A stretch of 64,000 nucleotides of DNA. Source: Octopus vulgaris. Its lineage: Eukaryota. The DNA is taken from NCBI GenBank assembly GCA_951406725.2, contig CATOCA020000001.1:3782001-3846000 (forward strand), given 5' to 3'. Position numbers and translations under genes: made by a program. A model generated the notes under the pieces. It ran no database searches. It saw only the letters and a list, made by a program, of their open reading frames with translations, and was not told where the DNA came from. This document shows positions 23,875 to 63,911 of this stretch, one piece after another. Position 1 is the first letter of the stretch; every line of letters starts with the position of its first letter.

Positions 23875-23957
23875 CTCTCGACACATGTTTCGAAGACGGC
23901 ATAATTTTAATTCCGAAGGAATAAATGGTGCATTATGTCATCTTCTCATCAGGAAAG
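23875..23957 (-). ncRNA. Type I minimal hammerhead ribozyme (Penelope pLTR type)
   Basis: Minus strand: ctttc-CUGAUGA-gaagatgacataat[26 nt]attatgccgtcttc-GAAA-C-atgt-GUC-gagag. Stem I 5 bp, stem II 13/14 bp, minimal stem III with palindromic ACATGT, GUC cleavage triplet (cut between 23880 and 23879). Confidence 0.85.
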
Positions 23958-25130
23958 ATTAAGAGCCTCTTTCAGCCACAAGACGAACAAAACTTTTGAT
24001 GATTGCCTACATGGTGACCACAGTGACAATGAGTGTTTTTTTTAAATAATCCGTTATAAGCAATGACTTAAAAAATGGGTAGAAGGAGGGAGTAGTAAAA
24101 ATAGGTAGGGGACAATATGTATGCTGTATTTATGATGATGTGCGGGTGTGTGCTTGTGTTAATTATTGCGAGTGATTGTGTATGTGTATGAGTGTGTATA
24201 TAACTGCATTTGTGTCTGTGTGTGTATGTGTTATTGTGTGCGTGAGGTAGACAAACGTCAAATACACTTAGTAGTAAGGTGTGAAAATTGTGTCTGTGTG
24301 TTTGATCGTGCATGTTATAGAGAGGGATATATATATATATATATATATATATATATATATATATATACATACGTCAAAGAAATTTAGTAGCTATGGAACA
24401 TAAAATCGTTTAAAATCGACATTAACCGGAAATGATTAAAATATTGTTATACGATCAGATGATAGATTTTTCATCTGTTAGAATCATCTCACTTTTGCTC
24501 GATAACTATTGATCATCGATCTCTTCCCAAATACGATGTCAAAAGCCAACATTAAAATGAAGTACATTTCTAATTTCATTGTTAGACCCTCCAGTGTTCA
24601 CATTGTCATCCACCATTCTCTTCCTGAAGAATCTCTGAAGCTTAAGCTGGATGTGCTAGAAATAGCAGCCAAATATTTCCTCTGAGCAGACGATAGATTC
24701 ATTTAACGATCGTGTCACTTCAGAAAATCAAGTTATCAATAACGATAATAATTTAAATGGTATATATAATGATTGACATGGAAGCAAACGATACAAATTC
24801 ATTTAACAATAGTTCGTTTCTGAAAATTACGTTTGTGAAATAAAGTATATGATAGAGAAATTATAACAATTCTGAAGAGGAATTAAAGGTTTTAGCAGCT
24901 TTAAAGTTATGGGAAAGGAATTTTCGTTATCAAAGTAGCAATATTTTATACGAAAGAAGGATGACAGGCGAGGATTTTGTGGTGTGAAGGGTCTTCAATT
25001 GTATATGTCCTGGTCTGTGTGTGCGGTGTGTGTGTGTGTGTGTGTGTGTGTGTTTGTGCCTGTGTGTGTGTTATGCACTGAGATATATAAAGATTATAAT
25101 AATGGACACAATTATATTCCAAACTTCTAT

Positions 25131-25530
25131 AGGCGCGGGAGTGGATGTGTGGTAAGTAGCTTGCTTACCAACCACATTGTTCCGGGTTCAATCCCACTGC
25201 GTGGCACTTTGGGCGAGCGTCTTCTACTATAGCCTCGGGCCGACTAAAGCCTTGTGAGTGGATTTAGTAGACGGAAACTGAAAGAAGCCCGTTGTATATA
25301 TGCATATACATATATTTCTATGTGTGTGTTTGTGTGTCAGTGTTTGTCCCCCCCCAACATCGCTTGACAACTGATGCTGGTGTGTTAATGTCCCTGTAAG
25401 TTAGCGGTTCGTCAAAAGAGACGATAGAAGAAGTACTAGGCTTACATGAATAAGTCCTTGTGTCGATTTACTCGACAAAAGGCGGTGCTCCAGCACGGCC
25501 ACATTCAAATCACTGAAACAAGTAAAAGAG
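25131..25530 (+). mobile_element. Second tRNA-derived SINE family (copy 46473-46875; 3' fragments 32635-32770, 37605-37770, 51119-51225, 56113-56280)
   Basis: A-box gtgg.tgtgtggtaag, B-box gggttcaatccc, body tagacggaaactgaaagaagcccg, tail ctgaaacaagtaaaagag. Confidence 0.8.
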
Positions 25531-27024
25531 TAAAAAAGAGAGAGAGAGAGCTCATCTGTACCCAAACCTTCAATAGTTTGATGTCCTATTTTCATAGGAG
25601 TGAGGGGAAGAGGGAGAGGAAAACATGCAGGGGCCTCTAAACTGTTTAACGTATTTGTATCTGAGAAAGTCTCCAGTATTCTTGATGCCTTCTGCAAAAA
25701 GTGAAAGATAAAAAAGGAAATTGGAAAAAAAAAACTAATTGTCTTCCAGTATCTGTGTGTGTGTCTGTGTGCGTGTGTGTGTGTGTCTGTGTGTGTTTGT
25801 GTGTGATGCAATGTGATATAAATAACCATGCCTATAAGTTTCTTTAATATAAAACTGAAGTGAATATTAATGATAATATTAAATGATAATATTAAATGAC
25901 ATAATTTCATTGTGAAGGAGGTTTAATCTTTAATGTTTTCAGTCTCCTCCACCACACTACTTGTTTAGCCACCGGGCAGAAGAAACTGCTTTTCCTTCCC
26001 GGCCTAAAGAAGGTGGCGGGGCGATCTTTACAATGAACTCGGCTCGTAAACTGGACGAACGACTGCATGCAGGACTATTTCATCGGCCTGCGCACACCCC
26101 CTACATATCCGTCCGACAACACTTTCGTATCTGTAGAGCTTGTCTTGAATCGGCAGAGCTCCCCGGTAGCACTGCCAGGCCAGGGATTTCTGGAAGTTAA
26201 AGACCAGTTAGTTGATTCCCTCCACCAACGCCCAGAATTTACCCCGATTTCGTCGTTGTTCTTTCCCCTCTACTAATCCCCTATAGAAATCCATGGTGGA
26301 ACTTTCAACGCCCGCGTTGCCGACTGGCAGAAAGCTGTGAGAGCTTGCCGACACTCCAGGTGCCAAGCGCCCTTTCTTGGCCAACGCTTGACTCAGTACT
26401 GTAGCTTCTTCAGTGAGACGAGCTGCGGAAAGTCCCGTTTGACAAACAGTCAATCCCCCATGCTCACCGTTAAAGAAACGCAGGAGATGTCTCCGTCTCA
26501 GCGCATGTCTGCAAATCATTAACGACGGCATGTCCAGTACTCCACTGAGAGGTTGTTGACAGCAGATAGAACGTCTGATGAGCGGAACACGTCCCTTCTT
26601 TAGAAAGCGGAATAACAAACGCTCTAACTTTATCGGGCATGGGACTACATTCAGGCAGTCATGACGGAAGCGAGGTACGCATTAGGCATCTCGATTCGAC
26701 CCTTAACGAACAGCTTCCTCTCTGCCAATTTCTGTGTGAGATCGACTATCCTGTTCGTCACCTCCCACCCGTTGTTGTCCACCTCAAGGTCAAGAGCAAA
26801 CCAGACCCCAAGTAGTTTAACCTGTCTTTCCATTTAGGACCCTAAAAACTGTCGGTTGGTATGGGTCTGCCTCTCCATCTGCCGATTTGCAGGCCCACCG
26901 ACTTCTCTTGGATAAGCTTTGCTCGTATCACCGCTTCGTGGACAGTATTATGATGACGTAGTCCGTGTTAGCTGATACGAACATTCCTCATCCTAAGACA
27001 TATATATATATATATATATATATA

Positions 27025-62832: not shown

Positions 62833-62947
62833 ACTTACCAATAAAGTGCTGTTAGTCTCTGTTCGTAAGAGGTAGTGAATGTTTATATATATCTATATAT
62901 ATATATGTGCGCATATATATATATTGCGTCATTTGTTTATTTACCAT
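62833..62947 (-). promoter_or_regulatory. Candidate promoter/exon-1 cassette, copy 5 (exon ~62839-62881)
   Basis: Exon and donor identical to copy 1. Confidence 0.45.
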
Positions 62948-63829
62948 ACATTTCTTCAATGAAGTAGCACACAATTATGCATATATATATATATATATAT
63001 ATGTGTGTGTGTGTGTGTGTGTGTGTGTGTGTGTAAATATAGATTGGCGTCTTTATTTCTCATTATATGAATCCGATATGAAAAGTTTGCGTCAGCAGTC
63101 AAAGATGGGCGTTGATAGTGGAAGAGTGTAAATGAGAGAGGGGAAAGAAAGTGATAGAAAGAGAGAGAGAGAGGGGGGGAGAAAGAAGAAAAAGACGGTT
63201 TTGTGTGTGTGTGTGTGTGTGTGTGTGTGTGTGTGTGTGTGTTTGTGTGATGCTATTAGCTACATAACCATGTACTAAGGATTTGGTGAGATTGATACAT
63301 TTTAATTCCCTTCACTTACTCAGTATACCCTCCTTCTTCCCCGACATTAGCATTCCAGCAGAAATGGAGAAATGAAAATTATGTCACTGTCTGGTGTTGC
63401 ATGTGTGTATGTATGTGTGTGTGTGTATATGCGTAACTGCATGAGACTGTTTACATCCGCGTAACTGAAATTAACTTGAAATAATCTAAGTACTATTTTA
63501 CAAATTGTGATATCTGTGTGTGTGTGTGTGTGTGTGTGTGTGTATATATATGTATATATATATATATATATAAACACGCACACACAGTTATCAGAATTAT
63601 ATAAACGTATATATTCATGTATTTGTATATATATATATATATATATATATAAGTAGGTGAATGAATTATTCTAGCATGGAAAATTCGTTTAACCGATACC
63701 TGGGTAGCAAATTCACGTCGGAAAACACAGTTGAAGTGAGATGTCAAGGGTAGAAACTCCGGGTTCTTGTGTGCAAATTTGTGTTATTTATATGAATAAA
63801 TGAAAGAATGGAGTCGAACGAGGTTTTTA

Positions 63830-63911
63830 CTCTCGACTATGTTTCGAAGACGGCATAATTTTAATTCCGAAGGAATAAATGGTGCATTATGCCATCTTCT
63901 CATCAGGAAAG
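63830..63911 (-). ncRNA. Type I minimal hammerhead ribozyme, copy 3 (variant)
   Basis: ctttc-CUGAUGA-gaagatggcataat...attatgccgtcttc-GAAA-C-ata-GUC-gagag; stem II fully paired (14/14 with one U-G), loop III changed to ATA. Confidence 0.8.

Follow-up and report, generated by a model that had tools for sequence, protein, structure and literature searches.

We analyzed a window of 64,000 nucleotides from Octopus vulgaris (assembly GCA_951406725.2, contig CATOCA020000001.1, positions 3,782,001 to 3,846,000 of the forward strand), in which three hammerhead ribozyme motifs lie on the minus strand, each inside a copy of the same repeat element. The window is microsatellite-rich animal DNA arranged as mosaic tandem duplications of 18-21 kb, and an LRR/adhesion-GPCR-family gene lies downstream of the motifs on the minus strand. 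The motifs, their host elements, and the sequences directly associated with them are the following (positions are those of the window):

23875-23957, minus strand: hammerhead copy 1, type I, with C17 at 23880, an A-C mismatch at 23938, and a self-complementary stem III strand
45198-45280, minus strand: hammerhead copy 2, with C17 at 45203 and 0 differences from copy 1 in 83 nt
63830-63911, minus strand: hammerhead copy 3, with C17 at 63835, a family-state stem II, and a damaged stem III
23697-24325, minus strand: host repeat element of ~630 bp between two (TA)n tracts, with a CA-rich 5' part followed by the hammerhead
45020-45648, minus strand: duplicate of the host element
63652-64000, minus strand: third duplicate of the host element, its 5' part running off the window
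22908-23006, plus strand: 99-bp antisense copy of the hammerhead 3' half and tail, just downstream of a cassette donor
44236-44334, plus strand: duplicate of the 99-bp antisense insert, matching hammerhead copies 1 and 2 and not copy 3
23858-23882, minus strand: alternative hairpin between five bases around the cut site and the downstream pentamer 23862-23858, found in all three copies

The core CUGANGA/GAAA/UH and stems I-III in type I order are present in all three copies. Specifically, CUGAUGA starts at 23952, 45275, and 63906 on the minus strand and is followed by GAAA and GUC, stem I consists of 5 bp of which one is G-U, and stem III is minimal. These features had been described in an initial annotation of the window and were confirmed on the minus strand of each copy. 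The long stem II with an inner hairpin that it also described was recovered as 14 positions with an inner 5-bp hairpin, the whole domain measuring 54 nt; one position is an A-C mismatch in copies 1 and 2 and is paired in copy 3 only. A strict descriptor returned 3 matches in the window and none in any of 150 local dinucleotide shuffles; a looser one matched in 2 of 150 shuffles, and a relaxed-descriptor match on the plus strand (5523-5588) carries a core mismatch. Hammerhead models were absent from the four Rfam matches up to E 10 on 23780-24050, and over the whole window no hammerhead family occurred among the 150 of 155 matches listed, the best matches being microRNA models on microsatellites. 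Rfam hammerhead models likely miss the motif because stem II is long. Viral and prokaryote collections gave 0 matches to the motif. A pattern scan of metagenomes gave one match, on the GC-rich contig L001, which showed no stem II by eye and was taken as chance.

In copy 1 the host element has two alternative 3' ends, the first near 23830 and the second at 23697, from which the hammerhead lies 45 and 178 nt away, respectively. The three hammerheads have in common what follows them, namely a 178-nt tail, then (TA)n, and then a right flank, which is also present without the element at 6.4, 29.8, and 48.3 kb. The left (5') junction is common to copies 1 and 2, and in copy 3 it runs off the window. 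Because the 3' junction into (TA)n is shared by all of them, the three hammerheads represent one insertion and not three separate events. Passive co-duplication, treated there as the null model, is supported by the shared junction and by the duplicated blocks. The hammerheads are spaced by 21,323 and 18,631 bp, and duplicated blocks diverge by 1.0-3.9% at unmasked sites. Across the hammerhead region, copies 1 and 2 differ at 1 of 349 positions, and copy 3 is 2.2% divergent and lacks the antisense insert. With 53 (TA)n arrays, the window averages one every 1.2 kb, and the element sits near a cassette because such targets are dense.

Between copies 1 and 3, 3 of 83 hammerhead positions differ versus 5 of 266 flank positions. 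The ribozyme is therefore no more conserved than its flanks, an outcome that the initial annotation had named as counting against its own reading, although a comparison of three young copies has little power. Under neutrality, an intact 14-site core is expected with a probability of 0.38-0.70 at tree lengths of 2.5-7%. Both lineages bear a damaging change, and there is no repair in either; weak selection is compatible with three young copies.

The 99-bp antisense insert lies ~800 nt downstream of the hammerhead and has one difference from hammerhead copies 1 and 2. The cassettes at 62.8k, 13.5k, and 5.8k lack it; the insert looks locally templated and arose after the split of copies 1 and 2 from copy 3. 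One of its ends shows a 7-nt microhomology and the other ~20 nt of filler similar to the target site, a pattern suggestive of templated insertion during break repair. In a read-through RNA, the insert and the hammerhead would pair into a near-perfect 99-bp duplex, which might serve as a substrate for A-to-I editing.

Contigs from 4 of 24 listed sequencing runs, which cover three organism labels and three studies, were aligned to 23700-24320 (621 bp) at 80% likeness. Contigs matching the element numbered 2951, 1057, 1297, and 975 in the four runs, matches to the CA-rich patch 24204-24245 included. Summed depth at 23938 was 178,068 in run X16, versus 2,297-5,123 in the outermost 5' bins (24246-24320), where summed contig depth is not equivalent to copy number. 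Division of this depth by single-contig depth, without a single-copy control, gives a rough figure of hundreds to thousands of family copies. Contigs bridged the hammerhead and the CA-rich 5' part (23939-24214), and loose contig ends ran into (TA)n at 23830 in 36 contigs of X16 and 15 of X19. The motif is accordingly found in a dispersed multi-copy family, close to the 3' terminus. At 23938, the copy-3 base (G) made up 176,967 of the 178,068 depth in X16, and its share in the remaining three runs was 98-100%. The family state at this position is thus G, and it was copies 1 and 2 that gained the mismatch; the earlier statement that copy 3 repairs a stem II mismatch had the polarity reversed.

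Among the 40 of 85 variable positions that were displayed, those within the motif were 23906, 23926, 23938, and 23940 and none fell in the core, whose invariance is not established since the other 45 lie outside the displayed rows. Positions 23926 and 23906 face each other by register, and their majority letters pair, extending the inner hairpin. One subfamily has other letters beyond both stem I arms, which by eye pair as a longer distal helix. Summed depth was greatest in the 3' tail (23721-23762, minus strand), where it rose to 943,906 in X16, or four times the hammerhead value. In its majority letters this tail contains a palindrome, and it may be shared with further repeat families.

Folding analysis gave a monomer stem III pair probability of at most 0.01 in every context, and stem I was also at or below 0.01 once the downstream pentamer was included. 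The hairpin masking the cut site reached a pair probability of 0.83-0.97 in context, and in copies 1 and 2 pairing of the hammerhead with the antisense insert was ~1.0 at equilibrium. The downstream pentamer was kept in a subfamily with a different spacer (run X20), and we speculate that it may act as an element-level off-switch. Dimer dependence, as suggested by the initial annotation, gained support from the self-complementary stem III of copies 1 and 2 (an 8-bp in-register duplex with two G-U pairs) and from explicit structure evaluation, in which the isolated minimal copy-1/2 dimer was 6.8 kcal/mol better than two monomers. In context, dimers were 5-16 kcal/mol worse than two monomer minimum-energy folds (5.0 for copy 1/2), with flanking pairs omitted from the dimer. 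The claim that copy 3 lost the palindromic loop III also held: its dimer complementarity is gone (+1.8 to +3.3 kcal/mol), and dimers with copy 3 were worse in both settings. The active fold is thus predicted to be disfavoured in the genomic context. A lone motif in a host read-through transcript would be expected to fold the masking hairpin or, in copies 1 and 2, to pair with the antisense insert, and would seldom cut. Metazoan hammerheads of Penelope-like elements (PLEs) are described as having no monomer activity and low dimer activity (PMC4209133), and the dimer result also appears in a review (PMC6765202). An anole PLE ribozyme cut only when protein was added, and RNA-seq gave no read with an end at the cleavage site (PMC11167929).

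The proposal that the minus-strand motifs are sense to a real gene was borne out by a gene downstream on that strand, with the following exon and exon-like segments:

3569-3779, minus strand: coding exon with a signal peptide-like segment and LRRNT (E 0.009), from an LRR/adhesion-GPCR-family gene
23181-23229, minus strand: putative short upstream exon (cassette), with a consensus donor at its end
5830-5878, 13460-13508, 44508-44556, and 62838-62886, minus strand: further cassette copies, with donors at 5830, 13460, 44508, and 62838

An LRR exon at 67-1 continues the reading frame of exon 3779-3569, and the 63 queried residues match a protein labelled Octopus vulgaris (P0041) with 100% identity. 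Of the 23 protein matches, 22 were to LRR or adhesion-GPCR-like proteins of Octopus or to partly named relatives; the remaining one was unnamed. An octopus-specific expansion of adhesion GPCRs with LRR members, partly co-localised, has been reported (PMC6408891). Since an acceptor precedes its ATG, exon 3779-3569 needs an upstream exon. The cassette is plausibly a first exon with a promoter and a candidate for this role, and residues of the paralogue gene model P0052 match the last bases before the cassette donor at 23181. The placement of hammerheads 0.65-0.95 kb from three cassettes held for the distances (651, 647, and 949 nt from cut site to cassette start motif), but the window contains five exon-like cassettes, two of them without a hammerhead. 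The cassette at 5.8 kb, the nearest to the gene, is 5-6% diverged from the others and belongs to these two; at 13.5 kb the region upstream of the cassette has been replaced. A second exon-like segment occurs in six minus-strand copies (25595, 31126, 37833, 46939, 49594, and 56337). Its nine residues start gene model P0041, and three copies keep both an ATG and a donor in phase. In other paralogue models the initial sequence matches 63353-63315, 13897-13811, and 4230-4096. Alternative 5' exons for the LRR/adhesion-GPCR-family gene are possible.

The resemblance to Penelope-type hammerheads noted in the initial annotation was substantiated by the type I order, the style of stem III, the 3'-terminal position, and the (TA)n target, and the repeat can be said, with good support, to behave like a PLE 3' end. 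Insertion into (TA)n was evident both at the junctions and from the loose contig ends of the family at 23830; the short self-complementary stem III is retained in copies 1 and 2. With no open reading frame (ORF) linked to the repeat, its assignment to Penelope is an inference. Neither a partial tandem of the pseudo-long terminal repeat (pLTR) kind nor an adjacent inverted 5'-truncated copy adjoins the element, the nearest inverted piece being the 99-bp insert ~800 bp off. By definition, Hydra-clade PLEs target (TA)n, carry canonical hammerheads, and have a CxCX5C linker (PMC8557442). The same source lists an Octopus bimaculoides family, Hydra-1_Obim, without pLTR, and gives 26 of the 27 Hydra families in its File S1 as inserting in (TA)n. 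In O. vulgaris, PLEs make up 6.83% of the genome, in 190 families (PMC13282606). One member of the Hydra clade was identified in the window:

27030-28517, minus strand: 5'-truncated Hydra-clade PLE with reverse transcriptase (RT) C-terminus, CxCX5C linker, and GIY-YIG, flanked on both sides by (TA)n
27052-27112, minus strand: degenerate hammerhead in the 3' untranslated region of this element, with U4 changed to C

The element at 28517-27030 resembles Hydra-1_Obim (compared by eye), has a largely open frame across the RT end and GIY-YIG, and is single-copy; clade comparison assigns it to Hydra rather than Neptune. It sits 3 kb from hammerhead copy 1, and the core of its own decayed hammerhead (27107-27057) encloses a 31-nt stem II domain with an inner hairpin. 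We propose that the repeat would have inserted by target-primed reverse transcription with a Hydra-type enzyme, and that the ribozyme of the parent element would act on tandem element RNA, processing it either as a dimer or with the assistance of a protein. A possible endonuclease C-terminus seen by eye upstream of the hammerhead ranked 25th of 127,918 windows by profile, was beaten by 200 of 200 shuffles, and was dropped.

Further mobile-element remnants are scattered through the window. Older GIY-YIG relics on the plus strand (11957-12326, 21578-21959, 42902-43283, and 61328-61706) are carried in the duplicated units, and weaker ones occur on the minus strand (11237-11037, 20349-20152, 41733-41513, and 60160-59898). 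Fragments of LINE reverse transcriptase lie at 33374-36362 and 51885-54638 (RVT_1, with zf-RVT at 35022-36362), head-to-head inverted within each unit. At ~1250-520 on the minus strand, a segment that by eye is a decayed Penelope-type RT fragment occupies the intron between two coding exons and has no Pfam match. The short interspersed repeat at ~25295-25135 (minus strand) resembles an octopus SINE.

We consider it probable, with good confidence, that the three hammerheads are duplicates of one insertion of a repeat, likely a PLE 3' end or a non-autonomous derivative, which was copied together with the cassette and is predicted to be silent. Several points weigh against this interpretation. 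Energy models ignore tertiary contacts, co-transcriptional folding, and chaperones, and when the minimal motif is folded in isolation, stem I reaches 0.64-0.87 and stem II forms too. Summed contig depth is no copy number, and a single-copy control is lacking in the comparison; the conservation test is of little power. The motifs are oriented sense to the gene. As to affiliation, tblastn and hidden Markov model searches revealed no RT or GIY-YIG relic in the 630-bp element, as expected if the copy is truncated or non-autonomous, the endonuclease profile test upstream of the hammerhead was not significant, and the 54-nt stem II domain is more than twice the longest among 26 Hydra rows (at most 24 nt; PMC8557442).

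The initial annotation had suggested that the motifs could act as an insulator between duplicated promoters, i.e., the hammerhead would cut nascent RNA from distal promoters before the next cassette is reached. In an extended form of this reading, pairing in trans with family transcripts might activate the motif. The sense orientation, the position 0.65-0.95 kb upstream of a consensus donor, and the intact core all suit such a role; the minimal copy-1/2 dimer is favoured, the many family copies could supply trans partners, and in human reporters a ribozyme cut can feed exonuclease-linked termination (PMC2288634). However, there was one insertion only and two of five cassettes have no hammerhead, namely the two nearest the gene, conservation shows no excess, and the active fold is predicted to be disfavoured. 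Copy 3 has in addition lost dimer complementarity, whereas copies 1 and 2 gained the mismatch and the antisense insert. Moreover, in the reporter study a poly(A) signal was a prerequisite for termination, and one upstream ribozyme did not release the pre-mRNA (PMC2288634). Gene model P0041 joins the exon found in the donor-intact copies at 25595, 37833, and 46939, all upstream of hammerhead copy 1, to exon 3779, and would span at least copy 1 if it comes from this locus; the evidence is weak, since an ab initio origin of the model or its derivation from a near-identical paralogue is possible. Taken together, we regard insulation as very unlikely. An elaboration in which a Penelope-derived hammerhead with a 54-nt stem II and an off-switch was recruited in the LRR/adhesion-GPCR cluster, cutting distal pre-mRNA only when trans-paired so that transposon expression gates promoter choice, with the antisense insert switching two copies off, strikes us as barely credible. 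Release of unit-length RNAs from tandem copies, also suggested initially, is likewise unsupported and would yield units of 21,323 and about 18,630 nt, unlike retrozyme monomers.

That the element itself is a non-LTR retrozyme-like or SINE-like RNA living as small circles, with the window holding solitary monomers, would account for a non-coding, ~630-bp, highly repeated unit with a type I hammerhead, and retrozymes have been proposed as non-autonomous PLE derivatives with defined solo monomers (bioRxiv 10.64898/2026.07.22.740005). We nevertheless find this unlikely: there are no short tandems, each locus has one hammerhead at 18-21 kb from the next, helix II departs from the canonical 4 bp, the unit exceeds the ~300-390 bp of PMC7229834, and linear insertion agrees with the presence of two alternative 3' ends into (TA)n. 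The near identity of copies 1 and 2 (1 difference in 349 positions) in a repeat-rich region could also be produced by uncollapsed alleles, in which case the triplication would be an assembly artefact of a single locus. Yet other blocks of the units differ by 1.0-3.9%, the units differ in length and internal mosaic, and copy 3 is both 2.2% divergent and devoid of the antisense insert, which makes an artefact highly improbable.

A single insertion copied by segmental duplication is therefore the interpretation that we retain, and it illustrates how, after such duplication, a lone transposon insertion may be mistaken for a regulatory module that recurs. Were insulation true, this would be a natural ribozyme deciding between duplicated promoters; nothing in the present analysis points there. 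An octopus hammerhead family with a long stem II was not described in the portions available of the hammerhead, Penelope, octopus, and cephalopod literature, of the PMC8557442 supplement, or of PMC13282606, and it may be catalogued in Repbase, Dfam, or the library of the latter study. The family is apparently uncatalogued and is abundant in runs of three organism labels, and Rfam misses it. This suggests that too few Penelope-type ribozymes are counted when descriptor searches allow only a short stem II.

Among known systems, the closest likeness is to the hammerheads of PLEs (Craig et al. 2021, PMC8557442; Hydra-1_Obim and Penelope-1/2_SK), which share the type I order, a short stem I, a short self-complementary stem III, a position within ~50-200 nt of a 3' end abutting (TA)n, and a host of the same genus, Octopus. 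They differ in stem II, whose domain measures at most 24 nt in 26 Hydra rows of File S2 against 54 nt here, and the octopus element has no ORF linked to it. Only PLE-X1_sMoe (52 nt) and PLE-X1_sTam are comparable in stem II in that table, both being flagged as deviating, and the exact motif strings of the octopus hammerhead were absent from the PMC8557442 supplement. The metazoan PLE hammerheads of Cervera and de la Pena (2014, PMC4209133) are likewise alike in their short helix I, enlarged helix II, and palindromic helix III, and are mostly solitary, genome-wide, and predicted to be dimer-dependent. Their helix II has ~6-8 bp and a short loop, whereas that of the octopus motif has 14 bp, a bulge, and a distal hairpin. 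With G10.1-C11.1 formed, the octopus motif, unlike these, also leaves no base unpaired between positions 9 and 10.1. Non-LTR retrozymes (Cervera and de la Pena 2020, PMC7229834; bioRxiv 10.64898/2026.07.22.740005) are also non-coding repeats with a type I hammerhead. Unlike them, the octopus element has a non-canonical helix II and is not in short tandems: nowhere in the window do two or more short hammerhead-bearing units follow one another, the spacing being 21,323 and 18,631 bp. Host-recruited intronic ribozymes would be alike in lying within introns and sense to the gene, if the distal cassettes are transcribed. The ultraconserved amniote intronic hammerheads and the CPEB3 ribozyme are single-copy and conserved. 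In contrast to such recruited ribozymes, the octopus hammerheads are young copies of a high-copy repeat and bear damaging changes.

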